From Flavobacteriaceae bacterium (GTDB taxonomy: Bacteria > Bacteroidota > Bacteroidia > Flavobacteriales > Flavobacteriaceae): 32,000 nucleotides of DNA. How positions within the stretch are numbered: the first letter of the stretch is position 1; each line of letters begins with the position of its first letter. The notes under the pieces are model-generated. The model saw only the letters and a list, made by a program, of their open reading frames with translations, did not search any database and was not told the origin of the DNA. A program made the position numbers and the translations under genes. The DNA lies in the NCBI GenBank assembly GCA_965224465.1, contig OZ245049.1:2280001-2312000 (forward strand). Direction: 5' to 3'. Below are positions 113 through 25,552 of this stretch, one piece after another.

Positions 113-3091
113 TTACTTCAAGGTCTTTTTTACTTCAATTTCTTGGTATGCTTCAATAACATCCCCTTGACGAATATCGTTGTAGTTTTTAAGTTGCAAA
201 CCACAATCATATCCTTTGGCTACTTCTTTAACATCATCTTTAAAACGTTTTAACGATGATAATAAACCGTCGTGAACTACTATGTTCTCACGTAAGATTC
301 TAATTTTAGAATTACGGAATATCTTACCAGACATCACCATACAACCAGCAATATTACCAATTTTTGAGATTTTGTAAACCTCTCTAATTTCAACATTACC
401 TGTAACTTCTTCTTTCAACTCTGGAGATAACATACCTTCCATAGCATCTTTTAAGTCGTCAATAGCAGCATAGATAATAGAATAAGTACGGATATCAATT
501 TCTTCTTGATCGGCTAACATTTTAGCATTTCCAGAAGGACGTACATTAAATCCTATAATAATAGCTTCCGAAGCAGATGCTAACAACACATCAGATTCTG
601 TAATAGCTCCTACACCTTTATGTATAATATTTACTTGAATTTCTTCGGTAGATAATTTTTGGAAAGAATCTGTCAAAGCTTCAACAGAACCATCTACATC
701 TCCTTTCAAGATAATATTTAACTCTTTAAAGTCACCTAGTGCAATACGACGACCAATTTCGTCTAATGTAATATGACGTTGGGTACGTACAGACAACTCG
801 CGTTGTAATTGTGCACGTTTGGATGCAATTTGTTTTGCTTCACGTTCGTCTTCAAAAACATTAAATTTATCACCTGCTTGTGGTGCTCCGTCCAATCCTA
901 AGATTGAAACTGGCGTAGAAGGTAATGCAATAATCATTTTTTGACCTCGCTCATTAAACATTGCTTTAATCTTACCAGAGTTTTTCCCTGCTAACATAAA
1001 GTCACCAATTTTTAATGTTCCTTCTTGAACTAGAATGGTAGATACGTATCCACGACCTTTATCCAAAGATGCTTCTACTACTGTACCTGTAGCTAATTTA
1101 TTAGGATTTGCTTTTAACTCGAGCATTTCCGCTTCCAACAATACTTTTTCAAGTAATTCTTCAACCCCAGCTCCTGTTTTAGCAGAAATATCATGTGATT
1201 GTATTTTACCACCCCAATCTTCTACCAATAAATTCATGGCAGCTAATTGTTCTTTAATTTTTTCTGGTTTAGCGTCTGGCTTATCTACTTTATTAATAGC
1301 AAAAATAATTGGCACACCAGCTGCTTGTGCATGGCTAATAGCCTCTTTTGTTTGCGGCATCACATCATCATCTGCTGCAACTACAACAATTACAATATCT
1401 GCTACTTGTCCCCCACGTGCACGCATGGCAGTAAAGGCCTCGTGACCTGGTGTATCCAAGAATGCCATTTTTTGACCTCCTTTTAACTCCACTCCATAAG
1501 CACCAATATGCTGAGTAATCCCTCCAGATTCACCGGCAATTACATTTTCTTGACGGATATAATCCAGCAAGCTTGTTTTACCATGATCTACGTGTCCCAT
1601 AACGGTCACAACTGGAGCTCTATGCTCTAGGTCTTCTTCTTTATCTTCTATAACTTGTACGGCATCTTCTACTTCTGCACTAACAAAATCAAGTGCGTAT
1701 CCAAATTCATCCGCAACAATGGTTAATGTCTCAGCATCTAAACGCTGATTCATGGTTACCATCATTCCTAACATCATACAGGAAGAGATAATATTAGTCA
1801 CAGGAATATTCATCATGGTAGCAACTTCGCTTACCGTAACAAATTCTGTTACTTTAATCACTTTACTTTCTGCCGCTTGTTGTTGTAGATCTTTTTCCGA
1901 CTGTTGACGGTGTAAATCTCTCTTATCTCTACGGTGTTTCGCTCCTTTATTCTTTTTAGATTTCCCTTGAAGTTTTTCTAAAGTTTCGCGAATTTGTTTT
2001 TGTACTTCAGCAGCAGTTGGTTCTTCCTTTACAATAGGTTTACGAACTTGACCTCTACCTTTTCCTTTATTAAATCCAGGTTTTCCTCCACCTCGATATG
2101 GACCTCCTTGTCCCGTACGTTGGTTTCCACCAGCAGTTCCAGTACCTGGTTTTATAATTCTTTTTCGTTTGCGTTTATTTGCAGCATTACCTGTTTTATC
2201 ATTCGCAACCGGTTTTTTCTTTTTTGGACGTTCAAACTGTTTTAAGTCAATTTTCTGACCTGTTAATCGAGGGCCATCTAATTTCTTATACTGTGTTTGT
2301 ATCGATTGTGGTTCTACAGGCTTCACAACTTCTGTTGCTTCTTTTTTAGGTGCATTTGGAGTTGTAATAGCAGGCTTAATCCCAACTATTTTTGCACGGG
2401 CTTTTGGCTCTTCTACTTTTTTAACAGCCGGCTTTGCTGTATGTTTAGGAGCTGGTTTCCCTTTTTTACCCCTCGGTTTCTCGACAGGCAATTCAATCTT
2501 GTCAACAATTTTAAATTCGTGCTTTTTAGCGCGAACTATCGTGTCTTCAGGTTTTTTAATTCCTTTTTCGACGGGAGCTGTCGTTTCTTTTTTAACCAGT
2601 ACTTCCTTTACAGGAGTTGGCTCTTTAGAGACTTCAGTCTTGGTTTTTTCAACCACTGGAGTTTCAACTTTAGCAATTTCAGCTACGTTCTCCTTTGGGG
2701 TTTCCACTGCTGATTTTTCAACAACTGGTACTTCCTTTGATTTTTCTAGGTCTATTTTACCTATTGTTTTTACTTCCACTTTTTCAGCTTTGGCCTTTAC
2801 AATTCGATTCAATTCTTCCTGACGTTTTTTTTCAATTTTAGCTTCTGCCTCTAGACGCATTGCCATTTTCTCTTTACGTTTTTCCTCGCCTACTTCTTTC
2901 GAAGCCGCTTTTTTATTTGCATCACTTGCAAACGTATCGAACAAAATGTCGTATTCGCCTTGGGAAATTTTAGTAGTAGGGCGAGCTTCTATCTCCACTC
3001 CCTTACTTCCTAAATGCTCCACAGCTCTATCTAAAGAGATGTTTAAGTCTCTTAACACTTTGTTTAGCCTCATTGTTTTGTCTCCAGCCAT
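113..3091 (-). CDS. infB: Translation initiation factor IF-2
   Basis: 992-aa ORF. It has a Lys/Glu/Pro-rich N-terminal region, then the GTPase motifs GHVDHGKT, DTPGH and NKVD and a conserved C-terminal domain. It follows nusA in the canonical rimP-nusA-infB order. Confidence 0.97.
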   Translation of the reverse strand: MAGDKTMRLNKVLRDLNISLDRAVEHLGSKGVEIEARPTTKISQGEYDILFDTFASDANKKAASKEVGEEKRKEKMAMRLEAEAKIEKKRQEELNRIVKAKAEKVEVKTIGKIDLEKSKEVPVVEKSAVETPKENVAEIAKVETPVVEKTKTEVSKEPTPVKEVLVKKETTAPVEKGIKKPEDTIVRAKKHEFKIVDKIELPVEKPRGKKGKPAPKHTAKPAVKKVEEPKARAKIVGIKPAITTPNAPKKEATEVVKPVEPQSIQTQYKKLDGPRLTGQKIDLKQFERPKKKKPVANDKTGNAANKRKRKRIIKPGTGTAGGNQRTGQGGPYRGGGKPGFNKGKGRGQVRKPIVKEEPTAAEVQKQIRETLEKLQGKSKKNKGAKHRRDKRDLHRQQSEKDLQQQAAESKVIKVTEFVTVSEVATMMNIPVTNIISSCMMLGMMVTMNQRLDAETLTIVADEFGYALDFVSAEVEDAVQVIEDKEEDLEHRAPVVTVMGHVDHGKTSLLDYIRQENVIAGESGGITQHIGAYGVELKGGQKMAFLDTPGHEAFTAMRARGGQVADIVIVVVAADDDVMPQTKEAISHAQAAGVPIIFAINKVDKPDAKPEKIKEQLAAMNLLVEDWGGKIQSHDISAKTGAGVEELLEKVLLEAEMLELKANPNKLATGTVVEASLDKGRGYVSTILVQEGTLKIGDFMLAGKNSGKIKAMFNERGQKMIIALPSTPVSILGLDGAPQAGDKFNVFEDEREAKQIASKRAQLQRELSVRTQRHITLDEIGRRIALGDFKELNIILKGDVDGSVEALTDSFQKLSTEEIQVNIIHKGVGAITESDVLLASASEAIIIGFNVRPSGNAKMLADQEEIDIRTYSIIYAAIDDLKDAMEGMLSPELKEEVTGNVEIREVYKISKIGNIAGCMVMSGKIFRNSKIRILRENIVVHDGLLSSLKRFKDDVKEVAKGYDCGLQLKNYNDIRQGDVIEAYQEIEVKKTLK

Positions 3092-7843: not shown

Positions 7844-9550
7844 ATGGAACTTCTTCATTATTTATTAAAATCAGGGCTTGTACTGGGGCTGTTCCTAACC
7901 ATATATGGTCTCTTCCTAAAAAAAGAGACGCATTTTCAATGGCATCGAATCTTTTTAAACACTGGTATAATCTTATCATTTGGGCTACCTCTGCTAATAC
8001 TCACACAAGTAATTTACATTTCTATTCCAGTAAGAGAACAGGTTATTCCACTTGTAAATCAAGCATTAACTACTCATACCAATACTATAAACTGGTCCTT
8101 TTATATAGGAATACTCTATTTTTTAGGCGTGGTAATAATGACGCTTCGCTTTTTACACCAATGCAATAGCCTCTACAAAATAATTAGCAAGAGTTCGGTG
8201 AGTAAATTAGAAAACCAACAATACCTAGATACATCCATTAAATGCACCCCGTTTTCTTTTTTCAACTATATCATCATCAATAAAAAACTACATACTGCCG
8301 AGGAAATAAGGATGATACTCACCCATGAAAACGTTCATAGCTCACAATACCATAGCTTAGACATTCTTTTATCTAACCTATTATTAATTATACAATGGTG
8401 GAATCCAATGGCTTGGTTTTATAAAAAATATATGGAAGAAAACATAGAATATATTGCTGACACAGAAACCATCAAAGAAATCTCTTGTCCCAAAGCATAC
8501 CAATATGCTTTAGTAAAAAACATAGTCTCAAACATCCAACCAGCTTTAGCAACTCATTTTTACCAATCACTTATAAAAAAAAGAATCATTATGTTAAACA
8601 AACCCACATCTAACAACATCAGTCGTTGGAAAACCATCCTCGTTTTACCTTTAATTGCTTTATTTTTCTGGACTTTTAATATGGAAGCACAATTTAAATT
8701 TGAGCAAATAGATAAAGAAGCAACACATTATATTGTGAGTCCAAAAACGCCAAAAATGGAATGGAATTCTATGGAGAAATATGCTAACTCAAACCCCTTT
8801 AAACTTACGGATACCCAACAAAATTCAAAGGAGGAAGCTACTCTTAAAACAATAACCAATTCTAACGATTCGAACACAGAAAAGCCAGCTTTAAAAACCC
8901 AAGGCAAAGAGCTACCCGTTACACCTGTTTTTACGAAATATAGTGCTGTAATTCAAACACAAGACAGTCTTATAAAAATTAAAATCCCCAAAGTATTGTA
9001 TGTCCTTAACGGAAAAAAAGTGTCTTCAAAAATTATCGAAGCCATCGATCCTGACAAAATTAAAAGTATAAATATCCTAAAAAGAAGTAACGCAACCGAG
9101 AAATATGGAATTAAAGCAACAAACGGAGCAATAGAAATATACACAAAATCCACAAATATAATAACAGCAACACGTAAAAACACCAAGCCTTCCTTTACCC
9201 TAAGCAACATAGAAACACCAAAGAAAGGTAACTCAAAAACCCCCTTATACATCTTAGAAGGAAAAGAAATTACCGCAGCTCAATTAAAAGACATAAAACC
9301 AGAGCAAATAAAGGCTATAAACGTTCTTAAAAACAAACAAGCTATTGCAAAATATGGACGTAAAGGAACAAACGGAGTCCTAGAAATAACACTAAAACCT
9401 AGCGCTACCAACACCCCCAAAAACACACGTAACATTACAGACGAAAAAGAAACAAACACAGATGAATTAGCTAAAGACAGCATAAAAATAATTCGCATTA
9501 TAAAAGGGAACCCAACAGTAAAAATCAACGATAAAAGAGGAGAAGAATAA
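7844..9550 (+). CDS. BlaR1-like M56-family membrane metallopeptidase, with two C-terminal TonB-receptor-plug-like repeats instead of a penicillin-binding sensor
   Basis: N-terminal transmembrane segments and the zinc motif HENVH with a downstream E (EENIEY). The C-terminus carries two paralogous modules: YVLNGKKV..IKSINILKRSNATEKYGIKATNGAIEIYTK and YILEGKEI..IKAINVLKNKQAIAKYGRKGTNGVLEITLK. Confidence 0.85.
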   Translation: MELLHYLLKSGLVLGLFLTIYGLFLKKETHFQWHRIFLNTGIILSFGLPLLILTQVIYISIPVREQVIPLVNQALTTHTNTINWSFYIGILYFLGVVIMTLRFLHQCNSLYKIISKSSVSKLENQQYLDTSIKCTPFSFFNYIIINKKLHTAEEIRMILTHENVHSSQYHSLDILLSNLLLIIQWWNPMAWFYKKYMEENIEYIADTETIKEISCPKAYQYALVKNIVSNIQPALATHFYQSLIKKRIIMLNKPTSNNISRWKTILVLPLIALFFWTFNMEAQFKFEQIDKEATHYIVSPKTPKMEWNSMEKYANSNPFKLTDTQQNSKEEATLKTITNSNDSNTEKPALKTQGKELPVTPVFTKYSAVIQTQDSLIKIKIPKVLYVLNGKKVSSKIIEAIDPDKIKSINILKRSNATEKYGIKATNGAIEIYTKSTNIITATRKNTKPSFTLSNIETPKKGNSKTPLYILEGKEITAAQLKDIKPEQIKAINVLKNKQAIAKYGRKGTNGVLEITLKPSATNTPKNTRNITDEKETNTDELAKDSIKIIRIIKGNPTVKINDKRGEE

Positions 9551-9608
9551 ATCCTAATTATCAAAATCAAAAAAGAAAAATAACTGGTTCTTATGCCCTA
9601 CGCATACA

Positions 9609-9639
9609 ATCCTTCTTTATCGAAAAGAGGGATTTTTTT
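9609..9639 (+). terminator. Rho-independent terminator of the blaI-blaR1-like operon
   Basis: ATCCTTCTTT (9609-9618) pairs with AAAGAGGGAT (9624-9633) with one G.T pair. A T7 run follows (9633-9639). Confidence 0.7.
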
Positions 9640-9698
9640 ATGCCAATTATTACCAACTTAAAATTAAGACTGCCTTCATAGATTTATTATTATTTACA

Positions 9699-9870
9699 TT
9701 TTCGACATTCGTGAAATAGTTAAAAAAGAAAACGACGAACTGAATTAACAGTCGCCGTTTCAACTATTTTAGCTCACCCTCTTTTCTATTTTCCTTTTCG
9801 GTGTTCGTGAAACATTTAAAAAAGAAAACGACGAACTGAATTAACAGTCGCCGTTTTAAATGTTTTCACA
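9699..9870. repeat. Tandem duplication (period 96 bp) of a long-hairpin module. The cas9-proximal copy is the tracrRNA 3' end.
   Basis: The core AAAAAAGAAAACGACGAACTGAATTAACAGTCGCCGTTT is identical at 9722-9760 and 9818-9856. The flanking arms differ (GTGAAATAGTT/AACTATTT versus GTGAAACATTT/AAATGTTT) but stay complementary within each copy. Confidence 0.85.
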
Positions 9871-9910
9871 ACGGAATAATCCTTATTGTGAATTGATTTC
9901 AAAATTGTAC
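9818..9910 (-). ncRNA. Predicted tracrRNA, transcribed divergently from cas9
   Basis: Minus strand 9909->9886 is UACAAUUUUGAAAUCAAUUCACAA, a perfect complement of repeat positions 2-25 in the GUUGUG sense, with a G.U opposite position 1. It is followed by UAAGGAUUAUUCCGUUGUGAAAAC (nexus-like), the hairpin CGGCGACUG-UUAAUU-CAGUUCGUCG, and the tract UUUUCUUUUUU. The exact 5' and 3' ends are estimates. Confidence 0.7.
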
Positions 9911-9911
9911 T

Positions 9912-9919
9912 CAAATATA
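9912..9919 (-). promoter_or_regulatory. Candidate -7 box (TATATTTG) for the tracrRNA
   Basis: A perfect TAnnTTTG on the minus strand directly upstream of the anti-repeat. I saw no clear -33 TTG. It predicts a TSS at roughly 9903-9908. Confidence 0.4.
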
Positions 9920-9954
9920 TGAAATAAATTCCGAATAAAGAGTTAGTGCGCCGT

Positions 9955-9962
9955 TATTTTTG
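9955..9962 (+). promoter_or_regulatory. Candidate -7 box (TATTTTTG) for cas9
   Basis: A perfect TAnnTTTG 34 nt upstream of the cas9 ATG. I saw no clear -33 element. Confidence 0.4.
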
Positions 9963-9995
9963 TAAATTAGTTGCTCAATACGCTAAAACTTTATT

Positions 9996-12900
9996 ATGAA
10001 AACAATATTAGGACTTGATTTGGGAACAAACTCTATTGGATGGGCCAATATAAAACTGGATTTCGATAAAAAACAAGGTAAAATCGTCGATGTTGGAAGC
10101 AGGATCATACCAATGTCAAAAGACATTATGGATAAGTTTGGAACAGGACAGTCTATTTCTCAAACAGCAAAAAGAACAGGCTATAGAGGAGTACGCAGAC
10201 TCTACCAAAAAGACAACTTAAGAAGAGAACGTCTACACCGCGTATTAAATATTCTTAATTTTTTACCAAAACATTATGCAGCAGCCATTGATTTTGAACA
10301 AAAACTAGGGCAATTCAAAAAAGGAAAAGAAGTAAAACTTAACTACCTTCCAATAGAAAACGGAAAAGATCAATTCATTTTTATGGATTCTTTTTTAGAA
10401 ATGGTCGCAGAGTTTAAAATAGCACAACCACAATTATTCTATCAAAAAGAAAATGGAGAAGAAACAAAAATCCCCTACGACTGGACACTCTATTATTTAA
10501 GAAAAAAAGCATTAACACAAAAGATAAATAGAGAAGAATTATCTTGGTTATTATTAAATTTCAATCAAAAACGTGGATATTATCAGCTTAGAGGAGAAGA
10601 AAATGAAAACGAAACAAAACTGGAAGAATTTCATTCTCTTAAAGTACTACAAGTTGAGGCTACAGAAGATAAAAATTCAAGAGGGATATGGTATAATGTT
10701 TTTTTAGAAAATGATTTAATCTACAAAAGACAGAGCAAAGACCCTTTAGACAACTGGATAGGAAAACAGAAAGAATTTATAATAAGCATAAACTTAGAAA
10801 AAGACGGAACACCTAAAAAGGACAAAGAAGGAAATATAAAACGGAGTTTTAGAGCTGTTGATTCGACCAAAGATTGGATTGCAATTAAGAAAAAAACAGA
10901 GCAAGACATAGAACAATCAAACAAAAAAGTTGGAACTTTTATTTACGACACACTACTTCAAAACCCTTCTCAAAAAATAAACGGAAAATTAGTTAAAACT
11001 ATTGAGCGAAAACTCTACAAAGAGGAATTACAATTAATTTTAAAAACACAAATAGAAAAACACACGTCTTTAAAAGACAGAGCGTTGTACCAATTATGCA
11101 TTGAAGAATTATACCCTAGAAACGAAGCACATCAAAACATTACTAAAGAAAGAAGTTTCCGTTATCTATTTATGGATGATATTCTATTTCATCAAAGACC
11201 TCTAAAGAGTAAGAAATCCACTATTTCCAATTGTGCGTATGAAAATAGAACCTTTTATTTAAAGAACAAAGAGAGTGAAAAATATGAAAAAATTACAGAA
11301 AGTTTAAAGGTAATATCTAAATCAAACCCGCTATTTAATGAATTTAGATTGTGGCAATTTTTAAAAAACTTAAAAATATATCAACTGAAAAATGAAGAAG
11401 ATATTGATATCACAGCACAGTGTATTGCATCCGAAGAGGGTTGGTGTTCATTATTCGACTTTTTAAACAACCGAAAAGAGGTAGAACAAAAACATATTAT
11501 AGATTTTTTACTAAAAACAGGGAAGTTAAACAAAACAGAAAAAACAAATTATCGCTGGAATTATCCCGAAGACAAAAAATACCCCATTAATGAAACACGT
11601 GTACAGTTCTTAAAGCGTTTAGAAAAAGTAACAGCTATAGACCCCCTATTATTTCTAACAAAAGAAAAGGAATATGCCTTATGGCACATTATTTATTCTG
11701 TAAAAGATAAAAACGAATATGAAAAAGCCTTAGGTACTTTCGCAAGGAAAAATAATCTTGACAAAGTTTCTTTTGTGAATGCATTCCTTAAACACCCACC
11801 TTATAGTTCAGACTATGGTTCGTATTCGGAAAAAGCGATTAAAAAACTACTGCCTTTAATGCGCCTGGGGAAATACTGGGACGAAAAGAACATAAACTTA
11901 GTAGTAAAAAATAGGTTAATTGCAATATTTGAAAGAATAGAACATATTAAAATAGACAAAAAAACATCGGCACAAGCGCTAGAGCTCACCTTAAAACAAG
12001 CTATTAAAGCAGTAGCAGATGACGATATTCCACCAGCATTAATTAAAAGTTTCTTAAATACAGATAAAAGTAAAGCCCTAAAAGGCTTAAACACCTACCA
12101 AGCCTGCTACGCTGTGTATGAAAGACACGCCGAAGTTAGTGAAATTATCCAATGGAAAACACCTAATTCCATTGACCAATACCTCAACAATTTTAAACAA
12201 CACAGTCTAAGAAATCCAATTGTAGAACAGGTTGTAACAGAAACCCTACGTACGGTGCGTGACATTTGGCAACAAGCATTAGATAATGATCCTACTTTTA
12301 AATTTGACGAAATTCATGTAGAATTAGGACGGGACATGAAAAACTCAGCTGAAAAACGAAAAAACATTAGTGAACGACAAACCATTAATGAAAACACAAA
12401 CGCACGCATTAAACTATTATTGGAAGAATTAAAAAATGATTATTCCGAAATAGACATACGCCCTTATTCCCCTAGTCATCAAGAAATCCTCAAATTATAT
12501 GAAGAAGGAGTAGGACAAAACCCTCATGTATCTTATGCTAAATTAGGAGAAGATGAAATTATAAAAATAAGAAGAAATGCAAAACCAACCAGTAATGAAA
12601 TCAAGAAATATAAACTTTGGTTGGAGCAAAATTACATCTCTCCATATACAGGAAACCCAATACCTTTAAGTAAACTTTTTACACAAGCGTACGAAATTGA
12701 ACATGTTATACCAAAATCAAGATTTTTTGATGATTCTTTAAATAATAAAGTAATCTGTGAAAGTGCTATAAACCCAAACCCATACAAAGACAACCAAACG
12801 GCTTATGAATTTATAAAAAACATGGGAGGAATGATTGTCCCAGAATTATCTTCCTCTCATAAAAATATAAAATTATTTACACTAGAACAGTATGAGAACC

Positions 12901-14725
12901 ACTGTAATAAATATTTTAAAAACAACCGAACAAAACTTAAAAATTTACTAAGTGAAGAAGTTCCTGAAGGTTTTATTCAACGCCAAATGAATGACAGTCG
13001 CTATATTAGTAAATTAATTAAAGGGCTGCTAAGTAATATTGTACGTGAAGCAGGAGAAAAAGAAGTAACCTCTAAAAATTTAATCCCCGTTAATGGAGCT
13101 ATTACCTCTAAACTAAAACAAGACTGGGGACTTAACAAACAGTGGAACGATATTATTAGACCACGTTTTGAACGAATGAATGAAATTTCTAATTCACAAG
13201 AATATGGATATATAGATTCCGTAAAAGACACAGAAGGCAAACCAAGTGGAGAAACTTTTTTCCGTTTAATTAGCCCTAAAGGAATCAATAAAAAACGAAT
13301 TGACCATAGACACCATGCACTTGACGCTATTATAATAGCATGTTGCACTAGAGAACATACAAATTACATTACTTCTTTAGATACAGCACGAAAAAACCAT
13401 AAATTAGTAGACAAACTACGATACAGAGAAAAAAGAGAAAAAAAGAACAAAAATGGAGAGTTAACACGTTTTTCAGTTGCTAAAGATTACATAAAACCTT
13501 GGGTAAACTTCCCTATAGAAGTTAAGAACGTCCTAGAAAAAATAATTGTAAGTTTTAAACAAAATACACGGATTATAAACAAAACCAACAATAAAACATG
13601 GCAATGGACTGTAAATGATGAAGGAACATTAAAGAAGAAACAAGTAAAACAAACAAAAGGAGACAACTGGGCCATACGAAAACCACTACACAAAGAAACC
13701 GTGTATGGTAGCGTACGTATAAAACAAGAAAAAAAAGGGCTCGTAAGCTTAAATTCATACCTAGATAAACCTGCACTTATAATAGACAAAAAAATACGTA
13801 AAAAAGTAACGGCTCTTAACAGCCTTTTCGACAACAACAAAAAGAAAATAGCAGACTACTTAAAAAAGAATCCTCTAGAAATTGACAAACAAAAAATTGA
13901 TAAAATAAAAGTTTGGGAATGGACTAAAAACGCAACGGCAACACGCACTCTCCTAAGTGATAAATTTACACGTAAACAATTAGATGCTATTACAGATAGC
14001 GGTATTAAAAAGATTCTAGAACACCACCTTCAAAATTATCTAGATGAAAACAATAAGGAACGTTTTGATCTAGCCTTTAACCACGAAGGGTTGGACATGA
14101 TGAATAAAAATATCACCCAATTAAACAATGGAAAAAACCATAAACCTATTAAATCTATACGTCTTTATGAAGAAGGAAATAGATTTGCAATTTCGCAGAA
14201 TGCAAACAACTTAAATAAGACTAAAAAATATGTAGAGGCTGCAAAAGGAACTAATCTATTTTTTGCAATTTATTGGAATGCCGAAAAACAAGAACGTGTG
14301 TATGAAACAATTCCACTACATGAAGTAATTGAATGGCAAAAACAACGTGCAGCTACAAAAGAATATCAACTCCCAATAATCCCTATTAAGCACAGAAAAG
14401 GAGAATTTCTCTTTTACCTTTCCCCTAATGATTTAGTATATGTACCTACTCCAGAAGAAATGAACAACCCAACACTTGTTGACTTTAAAAACCTATCAAA
14501 AGAACAAGTAATGCGGATATATAAAATGGTGAGTAGTACAGGAAATGAATGCCACTTTATCAATAATAGAGTTTCATCTTTAATTAAAAAGTATGATGCG
14601 AAATCAAAAATAGGTGAGTACGGTAGTTTAAATAAATCAGAAAAAACAATAAATGCAATACTAATTAAAAAAACATGTTGGAAATTACAAATAAACAGAA
14701 TCGGTAACATAAAAAACGTAATCAC

Positions 14726-14750
<25 letters not shown>
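9996..14750 (+). CDS. cas9: Cas9 endonuclease, type II-C, unusually large (1584 aa)
   Basis: RuvC-I ILGLDLGTNSIGWA (D8). Arg-rich bridge helix RTGYRGVRRLYQKDNLRRERLHRVL. RuvC-II IHVELGRD (E776 by my codon count). HNH YEIEHVIPKS..DDSLNNKV (H903). RuvC-III HRHHALDA (H1107/D1110). About 470 aa lie C-terminal to RuvC-III. cas1, cas2 and a CRISPR array follow. Confidence 0.97.
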
Positions 14751-15959
<1,209 letters not shown>

Positions 15960-16028
15960 GACTAAAAAAATAAGTATTGTAAAATAGTGTTCTTCTTAAA
16001 CCTTACTGTTTTACAAATCCTAAAAATA

Positions 16029-16065
16029 AATCCCAAAGCCTTAGTATGACTAAGAATTTGGGATT
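16029..16065. terminator. Long hairpin between cas2 and the first repeat
   Basis: AATCCCAAA (16029-16037) pairs with TTTGGGATT (16057-16065), and an inner stem pairs CTTAG (16040-16044) with CTAAG (16050-16054). It could terminate the cas operon (+) and/or array transcription (-). Confidence 0.5.
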
Positions 16066-16068
16066 GAC

Positions 16069-19000
16069 CCTGTGATTGCTCACGTAAAAATACAATTTTG
16101 AAATCAATTCACAACTGTCCTCTCGATGATGCAGATGCATTATGTCCTGTGATTGCTCACGTAAAAATACAATTTTGAAATCAATTCACAACACGATGCA
16201 ATTAATTTGTCGTATGCTAGACCCTGTGATTGCTCACGTAAAAATACAATTTTGAAATCAATTCACAACAAATTGGACTGGTGATTTTGACGTTAAAACC
16301 CTGTGATTGCTCACGTAAAAATACAATTTTGAAATCAATTCACAACTAATCTCCTTGATAGTTTAACACTTCGTTTCCTGTGATTGCTCACGTAAAAATA
16401 CAATTTTGAAATCAATTCACAACGCCATTTTATCTAATTCTTAAAATTTTAAACCTGTGATTGCTCACGTAAAAATACAATTTTGAAATCAATTCACAAC
16501 TGTATTTAGAAACACGCCCATAGCAATCAACCTGTGATTGCTCACGTAAAAATACAATTTTGAAATCAATTCACAACTGAGGCTGATAGCCTTCTGTTCT
16601 TCAATTACCTGTGATTGCTCACGTAAAAATACAATTTTGAAATCAATTCACAACAATTGCTTGTAGTTAGCATCTACTCCTCCTCCTGTGATTGCTCACG
16701 TAAAAATACAATTTTGAAATCAATTCACAACATTCTACTAACCAGTTCATCATATAATCCCCCTGTGATTGCTCACGTAAAAATACAATTTTGAAATCAA
16801 TTCACAACAGTATCTAACAATAGTATTTTACCTCTAACCCTGTGATTGCTCACGTAAAAATACAATTTTGAAATCAATTCACAACGATTACATGTGTTAT
16901 GAAAAATAGTACATGCCTGTGATTGCTCACGTAAAAATACAATTTTGAAATCAATTCACAACTTAAAATATCATTATTCAATGTTGATATTTCCTGTGAT
17001 TGCTCACGTAAAAATACAATTTTGAAATCAATTCACAACTAAACTTCAGTGAATACTTCGCAGGTAAGGAACCTGTGATTGCTCACGTAAAAATACAATT
17101 TTGAAATCAATTCACAACAATAGATACTGTTTGTCAATTAAATATTATCCTGTGATTGCTCACGTAAAAATACAATTTTGAAATCAATTCACAACCAATA
17201 TGTCAGTATCAATATGTCAGTATCACCTGTGATTGCTCACGTAAAAATACAATTTTGAAATCAATTCACAACTAAAAGCCATAACTATTACATTTCAATA
17301 TCCCTGTGATTGCTCACGTAAAAATACAATTTTGAAATCAATTCACAACTGTTGTAATAACGAATAAGTAGTTGTATATCCTGTGATTGCTCACGTAAAA
17401 ATACAATTTTGAAATCAATTCACAACTATAAGTCGCCCTGATAGTTCTAAGATATGCCTGTGATTGCTCACGTAAAAATACAATTTTGAAATCAATTCAC
17501 AACAAGATCAGCGATCGCTTTTTCATGAGTCTCCCTGTGATTGCTCACGTAAAAATACAATTTTGAAATCAATTCACAACCATTTCAATTACTTCAAAAA
17601 CTATTTTTCCTGTGATTGCTCACGTAAAAATACAATTTTGAAATCAATTCACAACTTGGTGCGGCTGACGTGATTCAATAGCATCGCCTGTGATTGCTCA
17701 CGTAAAAATACAATTTTGAAATCAATTCACAACGACACAATGCATCTTTTGGTAACCTGTGATTGCTCACGTAAAAATACAATTTTGAAATCAATTCACA
17801 ACTAACGGCTTAAATGAATTTCTGTAAATCGCCTGTGATTGCTCACGTAAAAATACAATTTTGAAATCAATTCACAACGAAGGCTAATACATTTATTGAC
17901 AAGTAATTACCTGTGATTGCTCACGTAAAAATACAATTTTGAAATCAATTCACAACAAGTTTGTAGTTCCATATATTGAAGCATCTCCTGTGATTGCTCA
18001 CGTAAAAATACAATTTTGAAATCAATTCACAACTGAGGCTTACTAACCAGTTCTGAACTTCTATTTCCTGTGATTGCTCACGTAAAAATACAATTTTGAA
18101 ATCAATTCACAACAGTATCTCTTACTAAGAGTATTTTACCTTTTAACCCTGTGATTGCTCACGTAAAAATACAATTTTGAAATCAATTCACAACTATCCA
18201 TTGCGAAAATATCGTACATCATAACCCTGTGATTGCTCACGTAAAAATACAATTTTGAAATCAATTCACAACTTGATTTCGCTATTGGGTTTCTATCGGG
18301 ATCCTGTGATTGCTCACGTAAAAATACAATTTTGAAATCAATTCACAACTAAATTGTGAGAACTAATAAGTGTTGTACATCCTGTGATTGCTCACGTAAA
18401 AATACAATTTTGAAATCAATTCACAACCTATTTCTTTTATTAAACATTTGGAAATTTCCTGTGATTGCTCACGTAAAAATACAATTTTGAAATCAATTCA
18501 CAACTTACCCTCGTCAACTTCTGGATTTACAGCCTGTGATTGCTCACGTAAAAATACAATTTTGAAATCAATTCACAACATTCTGCGATGGTCTGTTTAA
18601 GAGCTATGTCCTGTGATTGCTCACGTAAAAATACAATTTTGAAATCAATTCACAACAACTAACAATCGAATCCTTAAGCGTTCCTACCTGTGATTGCTCA
18701 CGTAAAAATACAATTTTGAAATCAATTCACAACTTATAGCTTCACTTGCCTTTGATTTTTTAACCTGTGATTGCTCACGTAAAAATACAATTTTGAAATC
18801 AATTCACAACAGAGTATAAATCGGTCATTAAAAGACATATCCTGTGATTGCTCACGTAAAAATACAATTTTGAAATCAATTCACAACATGATACCAATTA
18901 TCAAATACAACTTGATGCCTGTGATTGCTCACGTAAAAATACAATTTTGAAATCAATTCACAACGCTTAGCAGGTTTCGTTCTATTGAGTAAGACCTGTG

Positions 19001-19118
19001 ATTGCTCACGTAAAAATACAATTTTGAAATCAATTCACAACAACAAACATTTGCACTTACTCCTTTAGTCCCCTGTGATTGCTCACGTAAAAATACAATT
19101 TTGAAATCAATTCACAAC
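16069..19118 (-). CRISPR. CRISPR array: 40 x 47-nt repeats, 39 spacers (22-34 nt, mode 30)
   Basis: The + strand repeat is CCTGTGATTGCTCACGTAAAAATACAATTTTGAAATCAATTCACAAC. In the inferred crRNA sense (minus) it is GTTGTGAATTGATTTCAAAATTGTATTTTTACGTGAGCAATCACAGG. I noticed no repeat variant on reading, and repeat plus spacer lengths sum exactly to 3050 bp. The strand call rests on the GTTGT 5' end and on the tracrRNA anti-repeat strand; that orientation has about 0.7 confidence. Confidence 0.97.
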
Positions 19119-19302: not shown

Positions 19303-19373
19303 TTGTCCCACAAGGACTCGAACCTTGAATGACGATACCAAAAACCGGAGTGTTACCATTACACCATGGGACA
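19303..19373 (-). tRNA. tRNA-Gln (anticodon UUG)
   Basis: The reverse complement folds as a cloverleaf. Acceptor stem TGTCCCA/TGGGACA. D arm GTGT-AATGGTA-ACAC. Anticodon arm CCGGT-TTTTGGT-ATCGT, with one C.U and one G.U pair. T arm CAAGG-TTCGAGT-CCTTG. Discriminator A. CCA is not encoded. Confidence 0.82.
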
Positions 19374-23278: not shown

Positions 23279-23575
23279 TTACATATAGCCTTTCACTAAG
23301 TCAATCAAAGTATTCGCATCTTGTTCACCTACTTGGCGCCATTTCATTTCTCCATCTTTATAAATAACATAGGTAGGATTTCCTTTTATACGTAAGGCAT
23401 TGGCTAAGGTTTCATTTTTTTCGACATCTATTTTAATCACTTTAGCTTTATCACCCAAAGCTGCTGCCACCTTACGAAGAACCTCTGCAAAATCATAGTT
23501 GTCGTTTTCCCAATCGGCATAAAAATCGATCAAAACAGGAATTTTTTCATTTATAATATCTCCAAACTTTGTCAT
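23279..23575 (-). CDS. Thioredoxin-fold protein lacking the CxxC active site
   Basis: 98-aa ORF with Trx-like layout (PVLIDFYADW....KVIKIDVEKN...RIKGNPTYVIYKDGE). WENDN stands where WCGPC is expected, and the protein has no cysteine at all. Confidence 0.8.
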   Translation of the reverse strand: MTKFGDIINEKIPVLIDFYADWENDNYDFAEVLRKVAAALGDKAKVIKIDVEKNETLANALRIKGNPTYVIYKDGEMKWRQVGEQDANTLIDLVKGYM

Positions 23576-23667
23576 ATCTTTTTTTTTATCTTTTAGAAAA
23601 ACATTTTTAACAACAAATATACATTTATTATACTAATCTTAAACCACATAACTACTAGATAGCGAGT

Positions 23668-24000
23668 AATACCAATTACAATCCAAAATAACAGATATAA
23701 ATAGTTTATTTTACGTGCTAGCGTTGTTGAAAAATAGAACGATAGCTACGGCTATCCTTAGATTTTTCGCCTAACTTTAATACCAATTAAATTCCAAAAT
23801 GACAGATATAAATAGTTTATTTTACGTGCTAGCGTTGTTGAAAAATAGAACGATAGCTACGGCTATCCTTAGATTTTTCGCCTAACTTTAATACCAATTA
23901 AATTCCAAAATGACAGATATAAATAGTTTATTTTACGTGCTAGCGTTGTTGAAAAATAGAACGATAGCTACGGCTATCCTTAGATTTTTCGCCTAACTAG
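23668..24000 (+). repeat. 3 x 111-bp tandem repeat (A half of the MITE-like element)
   Basis: Units start at 23668, 23779 and 23890. Copies 2 and 3 are near-identical. Each begins with the TIR-like AATACCAATTAAATTCCAAAATGACAG and contains the hairpin GATAGC-TACG-GCTATC. Confidence 0.92.
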
Positions 24001-24002
24001 AC

Positions 24003-24257
24003 CAAAAAATAATTCTATTTCTAAACCGTCCCTTGGAAATGTAATTGGTATAACAAAAAATAATTCTATTTCTAAACCGTCCCTTGGAAATGTAATTGGT
24101 ATAACAAAAAATAATTCTATTTCTAAACCGTCTCTTGGAAATTTAATTGGTATAACAAAAAATAATTCTATTTCTAAACTGTCTCTTGGAAATTTAGTTG
24201 GTATAGCAAAAAATAATTCCTTTCTAAACCGTCTCTTGGAAATGTATACGGTATAAC
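24003..24257 (+). repeat. 5 x 51-bp tandem repeat (B half of the MITE-like element, inverted)
   Basis: Units are phased at 24003, 24054, 24105, 24156 and 24207. Each ends in ..CCGTC(C/T)CTTGGAAATGTAATTGGTATAAC, the reverse complement of the 5' TIR seen at 7088. Divergence increases toward the right. Confidence 0.92.
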
Positions 24258-24313
24258 ATCATTTATAAAAAAATAAACCACCGCCACTTCAAACTGCCTA
24301 CGTCTACTGCAAA

Positions 24314-25552
24314 CTACTTCCTCCGCAATGTAATCACAGATATCTCAGGCCAAATCCCAACTCTACCTGGAAAAGCTAAAAACCCAAAACCTCTATTCAC
24401 ATTGATATATCTTCCTGCAACTTGATAGATTCCCGCCCATCGTTTGTACACGTATTGCACAGGGCTCCATTTAAAACCAGGAATTTCTATCCCAAATTGC
24501 ATCCCATGGGTGTGGCCACTTAAGGTCAAATGAAAGTTGGATGGATGTGATTTTATTTCTTGTTCCCAATGCGATGGATCGTGACTCAATACTATTTTAA
24601 AAGCATCGTTGGCTACTAATTTTGAAGCTTTTGACAAGTCCCCAGCTTTTTTAAATCTAAGTCCCCAATTCTCAAGCCCTATTAATTCTATTTTTTCTCC
24701 ATCTTTTTCTATAGATACGTGTTGGTTTAACAATAAATTGAATCCAATTTGGGGATGTACGCTTTTTATTTTTTGGAAATTAGCCTCTTTATCAGCTGTA
24801 GAATTCCACTTTACATATTCACCATAATCATGATTTCCCAAAATAGAGAATTTTCCATACGGTGCTTTCAAGCTTTTAAAATCATCAATCCAAGGATCCA
24901 TTTCTTCTGCTACATTATTTACCAAATCTCCTGTAAAGCAAATGATATCTGATTCTTGTTCGTTAATCAATGTCATACCATGCGCAATTTTATCGGCATT
25001 GTCAAAACTACCACTGTGTACATCCGAAATATGTGTGATTGTAAAACCATCAAAAGCGACTGGTAAATCGTCAAAAAACAACTCGTGTTTTACAATTTGA
25101 TAGTTGTATTTCCCTTTGGTCATTCCGTACAAAATGGCAGCAAAAGGGATGCTTGCCAAGCCCAAGGCTATCTTGCTTGTAAAGGCACGTCTACTAGGCA
25201 TAAACGACGCTTGTTTTTCGCTAAAAAAATAATAAAACACTCCCATTCCTACCCTAGTTATATCTTCTAAAAAAAGGGTTGCAGAAATTAACAGTTTAGG
25301 CACAATACTAATAACAATCAATCCAATAGCATAGGTAAAATACAAGGAAGATTTCACATTAGAGCTATCGTAGCTATACCCTCGAAACACAAAAAAGTAA
25401 ATCACTGCAACATTTACCAACCAGTACATTTTCCAGATATTGGAGTTTCTAAACAGTGTCTTTACACTTTGAAACGCATACAAATCAATACAAATCAGCA
25501 CAATAATAAACAAAAACCACTTCATATACTCCTTTATTAAATTTAGTTCCAA
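24314..25552 (-). CDS. Membrane-anchored metallophosphoesterase (calcineurin-like, YaeI-type)
   Basis: An N-terminal multi-TM region is followed by the motifs ISDVHSG, TGDLVN, GNHDY and SGHTHG. The start could instead be the second ATG (MKWFLF..), 27 nt downstream. Confidence 0.85.
   Translation of the reverse strand: MELNLIKEYMKWFLFIIVLICIDLYAFQSVKTLFRNSNIWKMYWLVNVAVIYFFVFRGYSYDSSNVKSSLYFTYAIGLIVISIVPKLLISATLFLEDITRVGMGVFYYFFSEKQASFMPSRRAFTSKIALGLASIPFAAILYGMTKGKYNYQIVKHELFFDDLPVAFDGFTITHISDVHSGSFDNADKIAHGMTLINEQESDIICFTGDLVNNVAEEMDPWIDDFKSLKAPYGKFSILGNHDYGEYVKWNSTADKEANFQKIKSVHPQIGFNLLLNQHVSIEKDGEKIELIGLENWGLRFKKAGDLSKASKLVANDAFKIVLSHDPSHWEQEIKSHPSNFHLTLSGHTHGMQFGIEIPGFKWSPVQYVYKRWAGIYQVAGRYINVNRGFGFLAFPGRVGIWPEISVITLRRK

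Follow-up and report, generated by a model that had tools for sequence, protein, structure and literature searches.

We found that the 3′ terminator module of the tracrRNA of a type II-C CRISPR-Cas locus from a Flavobacteriaceae bacterium has been duplicated in tandem. The window, that is, the whole 32,000-nt stretch of DNA analysed, holds both copies on its minus strand. The duplication is old, both copies fold like intrinsic terminators, and the outer arms within each copy are complementary and covary. Judged from the sequence, there is about an even chance that this old duplication supplies a back-up intrinsic terminator whose extended helix has been selected at the RNA level. The feature is real, rare and dispensable, and a simple scar would be younger and less structured. 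The simplest reading is a tandem terminator, not a new system.

ORF mapping and Pfam searches revealed cas9, cas1, cas2 and a CRISPR array in the window (Table 1). The tracrRNA lies beside them and neither csn2 nor cas4 is present, as in type II-C systems. The crRNA-sense repeat (GUUGUGAAUUGAUUUCAAAAUUGUA...) is read on the minus strand, and no further ORF of at least 80 aa was listed between the end of cas2 (15959) and the start of the array (16069). The nearest Cas9 relatives are from Flavobacteriaceae, namely the MAG NORP270 (79% identity) and Sediminicola luteus (65% identity). Upstream there is a blaI/blaR1-like gene pair, which is convergent with the tracrRNA and has its own terminator.

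Several other features of the window were recorded. Transcription of the CRISPR array runs towards cas2, and there is a hairpin between the two at ~16025-16066. Each of the 47-nt repeats carries, on the crRNA strand (16069-19118, minus), the sequence TATTTTTA, which is one base off the TAnnTTTG box described below. This fits the repeat-internal promoters that have been described for type II-C systems (PMC10309648). A tRNA gene (19303-19373, minus strand; Rfam, 55.2 bits) was found ~185 nt past the distal end of the array. Positions 23667-24258, between a thioredoxin gene (23279-23575, minus) and a metallophosphoesterase gene (24314-25552, minus), contain a pair of adjoining tandem arrays, with three copies of a 111-bp unit (98% identical) and then five of a 51-bp unit (93%).

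Table 1. Positions of the genes, promoter boxes and tracrRNA elements discussed in the text (positions are those of the window; elements of the tracrRNA and of copy B are given in minus-strand RNA sense)
Feature	Position	Strand	Remarks
blaR1-like gene	7844-9550		Convergent with tracrRNA; Pfam Peptidase_M56 match over 7844-9547
Intrinsic terminator of blaR1-like gene	9608-9641	+	Found by terminator scan; boundary that any tracrRNA read-through would meet
Tail of 80-nt repeat, copy B, GUCGAAAAUGUAAAUA	9691-9706	-	Within direct repeat D1
Copy B 3′ arm X″, AACUAUUUCACGAAU	9707-9721	-	Pairs with 9762-9777
Copy B intrinsic terminator	9722-9761	-	Identical to copy A except first base (G9761 vs A9857)
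Copy B 5′ arm, GUGAGCUAAAAUAGUU	9762-9777	-	Linker-like; GCU insertion and two substitutions compensated in 3′ arm
Inter-module spacer	9778-9802	-	Homologous in window, L002 and L004; largely deleted in L021 (alignment A3)
Post-terminator arm X, AAAUGUUUCACGAAC	9803-9817	-	Reverse complement of linker; after copy A U-tract
Copy A intrinsic terminator	9818-9857	-	Stem AAAACGGCGACUG/CAGU(U)CGUCGUUUU, loop UUAAUU, U-tract UUUUCUUUUUU
Linker, GUUGUGAAAACAUUU	9858-9872	-	Also 5′ arm of copy A extended hairpin
Nexus hairpin, AAGGAUUAUUCC	9873-9884	-	Predicted stem GGA/UCC
Anti-repeat	9886-9909	-	24/24 complementary to 5′ part of crRNA-sense CRISPR repeat
tracrRNA promoter -7 box, TATATTTG	9912-9919	-	Exact TAnnTTTG match
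Probable cas9 promoter -7 box, TATTTTTG	9955-9962	+	Exact TAnnTTTG match; divergent from tracrRNA promoter
cas9	9996-14750	+	1584 aa; Pfam RuvC_III, HNH_4, Cas9-BH
cas1	14726-15616	+	Pfam Cas_Cas1
cas2	15618-15959	+	Pfam CRISPR_Cas2
CRISPR array	16069-19118	crRNA sense, minus	40 exact 47-nt repeats

The tracrRNA gene lies directly upstream of cas9 on the minus strand, with all textbook parts present. TAnnTTTG is the Bacteroidota promoter consensus as quoted in PMC10309648, and the promoter conventions given there agree. Only two exact matches to it occur in 9560-10010, the tracrRNA box and the probable cas9 box, the latter being located 34 nt upstream of the cas9 ATG. The related loci likewise have a TAnnTTTG box directly upstream of the anti-repeat. 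We infer that tracrRNA transcription starts at ~9904-9907. The anti-repeat had a local alignment score of 48 against the 47-nt repeat, and its duplex with the 5′ end of the repeat has a predicted energy of -33.5 kcal/mol. The nexus sequence is common to the related tracrRNA loci examined, some of which were themselves retrieved with patterns containing it. The columns of the linker are invariant or nearly so in a 21-locus alignment (A1), as expected from its position joining the nexus to the terminal hairpin, and the linker is presumably read by Cas9. The terminated form of the terminal hairpin, which belongs to the first copy of the module (copy A), folds with -15.5 kcal/mol (z -3.9), and the related loci in the alignment have a hairpin and a U-tract at the same position. 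The U-tract of copy A is the expected 3′ end of the tracrRNA, which would then be ~85-90 nt long. Every sequence or structure feature of a type II-C tracrRNA that we looked for was thus found with copy A, i.e., the anti-repeat, the cas neighbours, and the nexus with a terminal terminator hairpin.

We also observed that 12/15 positions of the linker agree with the 15 nt at the start of the crRNA repeat (GUUGUGAAUUGAUUU). Owing to this likeness, a free tracrRNA can fold the 3′ end of its anti-repeat (CACAAU) onto GUUGUG, and this pairing around the nexus is present in the minimum-free-energy fold of the tracrRNA.

A repeat search found one direct repeat family, D1, at 9691-9770 and 9787-9866, with a length of 80 nt, an identity of 88% and a spacing of 96 nt. 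This agrees with a first-pass annotation of the sequence, which had described a module of about 75-80 bp occurring twice, 96 bp apart, as a tandem duplication of the tracrRNA terminal hairpin. In minus-strand RNA sense, 9787-9866 is copy A and 9691-9770 is copy B. The inner part of the module, given earlier as 9722-9760 and 9818-9856, is indeed identical between the copies, but the identical core is two bases longer (41 nt; 9720-9760 = 9816-9856). In minus-strand RNA it reads AAACGGCGACUG-UUAAUU-CAGUUCGUCGUUU, then UUUUCUUUUUU, and it coincides with the terminator hairpin and the U-tract. If 10 differences fall among 80 positions, the probability of 41 or more consecutive positions without one is 0.004. 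The terminated form of copy B folds with -16.6 kcal/mol (z -3.4). Therefore two G+C-containing hairpins with U-tracts are present on the same strand downstream of one gene, which is the sequence arrangement of tandem terminators. Both hairpins were missed by the terminator scan, probably owing to a one-base bulge in the stem, and were judged by folding instead.

All 41 positions of the core are identical while the flanks outside it differ at 10/39 positions (~26%). Gene conversion fits this pattern at least as well as selection does. The same pattern thus favours the main dull alternative, which we consider rather unlikely: the second module would be a neutral, non-functional leftover of the duplication, with gene conversion keeping the core identical and templated repair in the quasi-palindrome (intrastrand template switching) mimicking compensation. 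The related locus L002, whose two copies differ at one loop base only, also favours it.

As the first-pass annotation had noted, one copy is without an anti-repeat. This is copy B, for which the best alignment score to the CRISPR repeat was 13 on either strand of 9680-9830, compared with 48 for the true anti-repeat. This indicates that copy B is not a tracrRNA. No exact TAnnTTTG box was found for copy B on either strand in 9560-10010. As a candidate promoter of its own, only a relaxed match, TACATTTT at 9695(+), was found, and it is not conserved in copy A. Copy B with the spacer was also considered as a decayed full tracrRNA and rejected, for the spacer aligned with the 5′ half of the tracrRNA (anti-repeat and nexus) no better than shuffled sequences, of which fractions of 0.63 and 0.80 scored as high. 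Searches for known RNA families with Rfam, by gathering cutoff and by E-value, gave the tRNA elsewhere in the window and only noise in 9550-10000.

Copy B could be taken for a separate small RNA (a Cas9 decoy, a scaRNA-like tracrRNA partner or a decayed second tracrRNA), as it carries a tracrRNA-like linker and a terminal hairpin. The lack of a promoter box at copy B, of any repeat-like or anti-repeat-like segment in it, of spacer similarity to the anti-repeat or the nexus, and of an Rfam match makes this highly improbable. Likewise, the earlier suggestions of a decoy, a separate structured RNA or a protein-binding site found no backing, with no TAnnTTTG box on either strand and no Rfam match. 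Since copy B has neither a promoter box nor an anti-repeat, read-through from copy A is the sole evident route for its transcription, and we infer that copy B is reached by read-through only.

Because the core of copy B is a competent-looking terminator and read-through is the only evident way to it, a fail-safe terminator is its most likely role. A tandem duplication would have copied the 3′ module of the tracrRNA, consisting of the linker, the Rho-independent terminator and a post-terminator arm. Termination would then occur at both sites. Copy A would end the normal tracrRNA at ~9818, and copy B, 96 nt downstream, would stop polymerases that pass copy A, so that a long isoform of ~180 nt would end near 9722, before running antisense into the convergent blaI/blaR1-like operon. 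The read-through RNA would fold into a long helix with ~17 outer and 13 inner bp, whose pairing would be maintained at the RNA level. However, a fail-safe role leaves the kept outer helix unexplained, because a back-up needs neither a linker-like arm nor an outer helix.

In copy A the outer helix is formed by the linker and the post-terminator arm X. As X lies 3′ of the U-tract, the long helix is possible only in read-through RNA. The first-pass annotation had regarded the outer stem as part of the tracrRNA terminal hairpin; this has to be corrected, since its 5′ arm is the linker and its 3′ arm comes after the U-tract, and it is absent from the terminated tracrRNA. In the predicted fold the outer helix has ~17 bp rather than 8 and is interrupted by a 7-nt bulge. 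The extended fold of copy A has -24.7 kcal/mol (z -5.3), compared with -15.5 for the terminated form, and the arm-to-arm duplex of linker and X has -14.6 kcal/mol (z -5.3 against shuffles). The extended fold of copy B has -21.6 kcal/mol (z -3.6). X was also tried as a pseudo-anti-repeat for the crRNA repeat and rejected, with a duplex of -7.6 kcal/mol against a shuffle mean of -6.5.

The outer arms are complementary within each copy, as had been stated, with AAACAUUU/AAAUGUUU in copy A and AAAUAGUU/AACUAUUU in copy B. All of the five outer-stem differences between the copies keep the pairing: two pairs are changed on both sides (C:G->U:A and U:A->G:C), one on a single side (A:U->G:U), and none is broken. 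The two covarying pairs that had been pointed out are therefore real. They are also unlikely by chance: when 10 substitutions were placed at random in a simulation, at least two double changes had a probability of 0.005, and the same with none broken 0.0002. In an alignment of seven modules, 90.9% of the cells were paired and three pairs were changed on both sides, compared with 37-55% paired in slid controls, and the covariation score was 0.186 vs 0.089 in shuffles (0/500); these counts come from a small sample of related sequences, and the structure was derived from those same sequences. The conclusion drawn earlier from covariation, that the hairpin is selected as a structure, stands for the compensation and not for selection as its only cause, because parts of the same picture could also arise from gene conversion and from mutation templated by the palindrome.

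Read in the sense of the tracrRNA, the wobble pairs take the form G:U, which favours pairing at the RNA level over pairing in DNA. They speak against the neutral relic, since DNA-templated correction of a palindrome would yield Watson-Crick pairs only. The second modules of L002 and L031 each have their own matched outer arms. According to the predicted folds, a GAGC insertion in the second copy of L002 pairs with GCUU, and GAAUAAAA pairs with UUUUAUUC in that of L031. Together with the window there are three independent B copies that each keep matched arms of their own, which is not expected of a relic. The 5′ arm of the B copies is free of the Cas9 constraint, and both arms change together, which points towards selection on the helix. 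On the other hand, the arm complementarity of the B copies is barely above that of shuffles, as a relic would have it: the arm duplex of copy B alone is marginal (p = 0.068), and so are the outer arms of the B copies taken singly in this A/U-rich sequence (p = 0.068, 0.053 and 0.037).

The conservation of X also bears on this question. It is identical at 17/17 positions between the window and L002, whose Cas9s are 63% identical, and at 15/17 in L031 and 13/17 in L004, while the flanking intergenic sequence has diverged around it in the window, L002 and L031. The Cas9s of these loci are 62-79% identical to each other. Such conservation is hard to reconcile with a neutral relic, and it is predicted by selection for pairing with an invariant partner. 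From these comparisons the long helix appears to be selected at the RNA level.

We then compared 39 distinct tracrRNA loci including the window, which were left after removal of duplicates and truncated contigs. They were drawn from a genome scan with Cas9 (19), a metagenome scan (6), contig look-ups (14), which covered ~14 of the 120 closest Cas9 clusters, and IMG/VR matches to the tracrRNA core (17). The complementarity of the linker to the downstream sequence was bimodal, with five loci at z -2.6 or below and the others at z -2.1 or weaker. The arm energies were -14 to -16 kcal/mol in L031, L002 and the window, -10.3 in L004 and -9.0 in L021. The second module or its remains was found in these same five loci only and was absent in the other 34. 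It is intact in three (window, L002 and L031) and decayed in two (L004 and L021), whose second copies no longer fold (z +0.85 and +0.14, respectively). L004 is the closest relative, with a Cas9 79% identical to that of the window, and has lost the second hairpin. The first-pass annotation had proposed to look for the second module in related genomes; it is present in few of the loci compared, and its conservation is weak. The neutral relic is favoured by this loss or decay in most lineages, the closest relative included.

The five loci align along their length (A3), through the U-tract, X, the spacer, GUGA(GC)U and AAAACAUUUAAAGC, and have a common layout of X, spacer, GUGAGCU and second module. 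This full-length alignment points to a single origin. The GAGCU insertion of the copy B 5′ arm is common to L002 and L021. The second copy of L002 is nearly identical to its first, and 38 nt are inserted ahead of the second X. In L031 the hairpin of the second module (AGCAGC...GUUGCU) differs from the first (GCCGCCUCGA...UCGGGGC). The Cas9s of the module-bearing loci are 54-79% identical to that of the window, which bears out the earlier view that this is not a recent duplication scar. In a neighbour-joining tree of Cas9 the five loci are scattered and have sister loci without the module. This suggests that the module is either ancestral with many losses or has been moved by recombination. The arrangement, as far as its sequence tells, is old, yet dispensable. 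Its absence in 34/39 loci and its decay in L004 indicate that any benefit is small or context-dependent.

Two further observations were made on the related loci. The terminal hairpin GCCGCCUCGACUUYYAAUUCGGGGC is nearly the same in L031, L003, L006 and L026, which belong to four separate Cas9 clades and whose sister loci carry different terminal hairpins. This suggests that the 3′ hairpin of the tracrRNA is exchanged between loci by recombination, and such exchange might likewise account for the patchy occurrence of the second module. In L008, ~130 nt downstream of the tracrRNA, there is a short hairpin, CGUGAAAAUGUAGUGUUUUCAC, that looks as if the interior between outer arms GUGAAAAC...GUUUCAC had been lost. 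The resemblance may be due to chance, or the hairpin may be what is left of a collapsed module.

RNase III processes RNA duplexes in type II systems, and it is also the enzyme by which lambda sib works. By analogy, X and the second module could form a termination-coupled switch of the tracrRNA, although we think this improbable. Read-through would lock the linker, presumably bound by Cas9, in a helix of ~17 bp, and the duplex would block Cas9 loading or be marked for cutting by RNase III, while copy B would end the transcripts and fold likewise. How much tracrRNA is active, and with it the activity of Cas9, would then depend on the efficiency of the terminator. Selection on the pairing of linker and X would explain why X is invariant opposite an invariant linker and why the arms covary in the unconstrained B copies. 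Such control is consistent with an extended helix that ties up the linker and cannot form unless the RNA continues past the U-tract, and with pairing at the RNA level as judged from the G:U wobbles. Moreover, X occurs only together with the second module (5/5 loci), which suggests that the two work as a unit. However, the 7-nt bulge interrupts the outer helix as a putative RNase III substrate, and X is absent in most relatives. L099 (IMGVR_UViG_3300013936_000003, ~990-1047, minus strand) also argues against it. The terminal hairpin of its tracrRNA has no U-tract, and the linker forms part of a perfect 16-bp palindrome, ACAUUUAAGGCGGCCC / GGGUCGCCUUAAAUGU, in which it is paired. A different hairpin and a U7 run follow ~10 nt later. 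Pairing of the linker may therefore be tolerated, not inhibitory.

With its arms of ~19 nt, each module forms a large inverted repeat, formally like the terminal inverted repeats of miniature elements. It might thus be a DNA-level element, i.e., a palindromic protein-binding site, a cruciform, or a MITE/REP-like mobile palindrome carrying a terminator, but several results make this very improbable. No more copies of X or of linker plus hairpin were found in the 32-kb window or, outside the tracrRNA position, in ~515 kb of related loci. X itself occurred once in the window with three mismatches allowed, a search that does not pick up the diverged X of copy B. One of the two arms is the conserved, functional linker of the tracrRNA, which is present in loci without the other arm, and on the opposite strand the G:U pairs would turn into A:C mismatches. 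IMG/VR (viral-contig) matches to TTAAATGTTTCAYGAAC, 47 in number, were examined as traces of a dispersed element; they have no tracrRNA context and look like chance.

If the fail-safe reading is true, it adds a little to the biology of tracrRNAs, in that some Bacteroidota type II-C loci would have a paralogous second terminator and an 'anti-linker' that is present on read-through only. This may be of practical use in predicting tracrRNA 3′ ends and in designing sgRNA scaffolds for these large Cas9s, for which the true end would be the first U-tract. Such scaffolds are best designed without the downstream sequence, since the linker would be sequestered by it. A real read-through switch would amount to a sib-like retroregulation of a CRISPR guide scaffold, through which Cas9 activity would be tuned in a new manner. 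If there is none, what the locus has is an ordinary tandem terminator whose evolutionary history can be read unusually well.

A full-text search found no description of duplicated tracrRNA terminators in the literature. Among known systems, the closest are the Bacteroidota type II-C tracrRNAs with 47-nt repeats (Flavobacterium loci, PMC10309648), of which copy A is a standard member. Like them, it is transcribed divergently from cas9 under a TAnnTTTG promoter and comprises a 24-nt anti-repeat, the same nexus and linker, and one terminator hairpin. Unlike them, the window and two to four other lineages have a doubled 3′ module and a post-terminator arm complementary to the linker.

Extra Cas9-associated RNAs are encoded next to the tracrRNA in other systems, namely the Francisella scaRNA and the long-form tracrRNA of S. 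pyogenes. The window similarly has extra tracrRNA-related sequence beside its tracrRNA gene, whereas copy B has neither a promoter nor a guide-like portion, nor any segment resembling the repeat or the anti-repeat. In the retroregulation of phage lambda by sib/tI, an RNase III site is completed only in the read-through RNA. According to the predicted folds, the terminator hairpin of the window likewise grows into a longer helix only on read-through. In contrast to lambda, what the helix predicted here would sequester as its 5′ arm is not mRNA but a protein-binding segment belonging to a guide-RNA scaffold. The tandem Rho-independent terminators of highly expressed or small-RNA genes resemble the window in having two units of hairpin plus U-tract on the same strand within 100 nt, the second of them without its own promoter. 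The window differs from these in that its second unit is a paralogue of the first, with a copied linker and matched outer arms.
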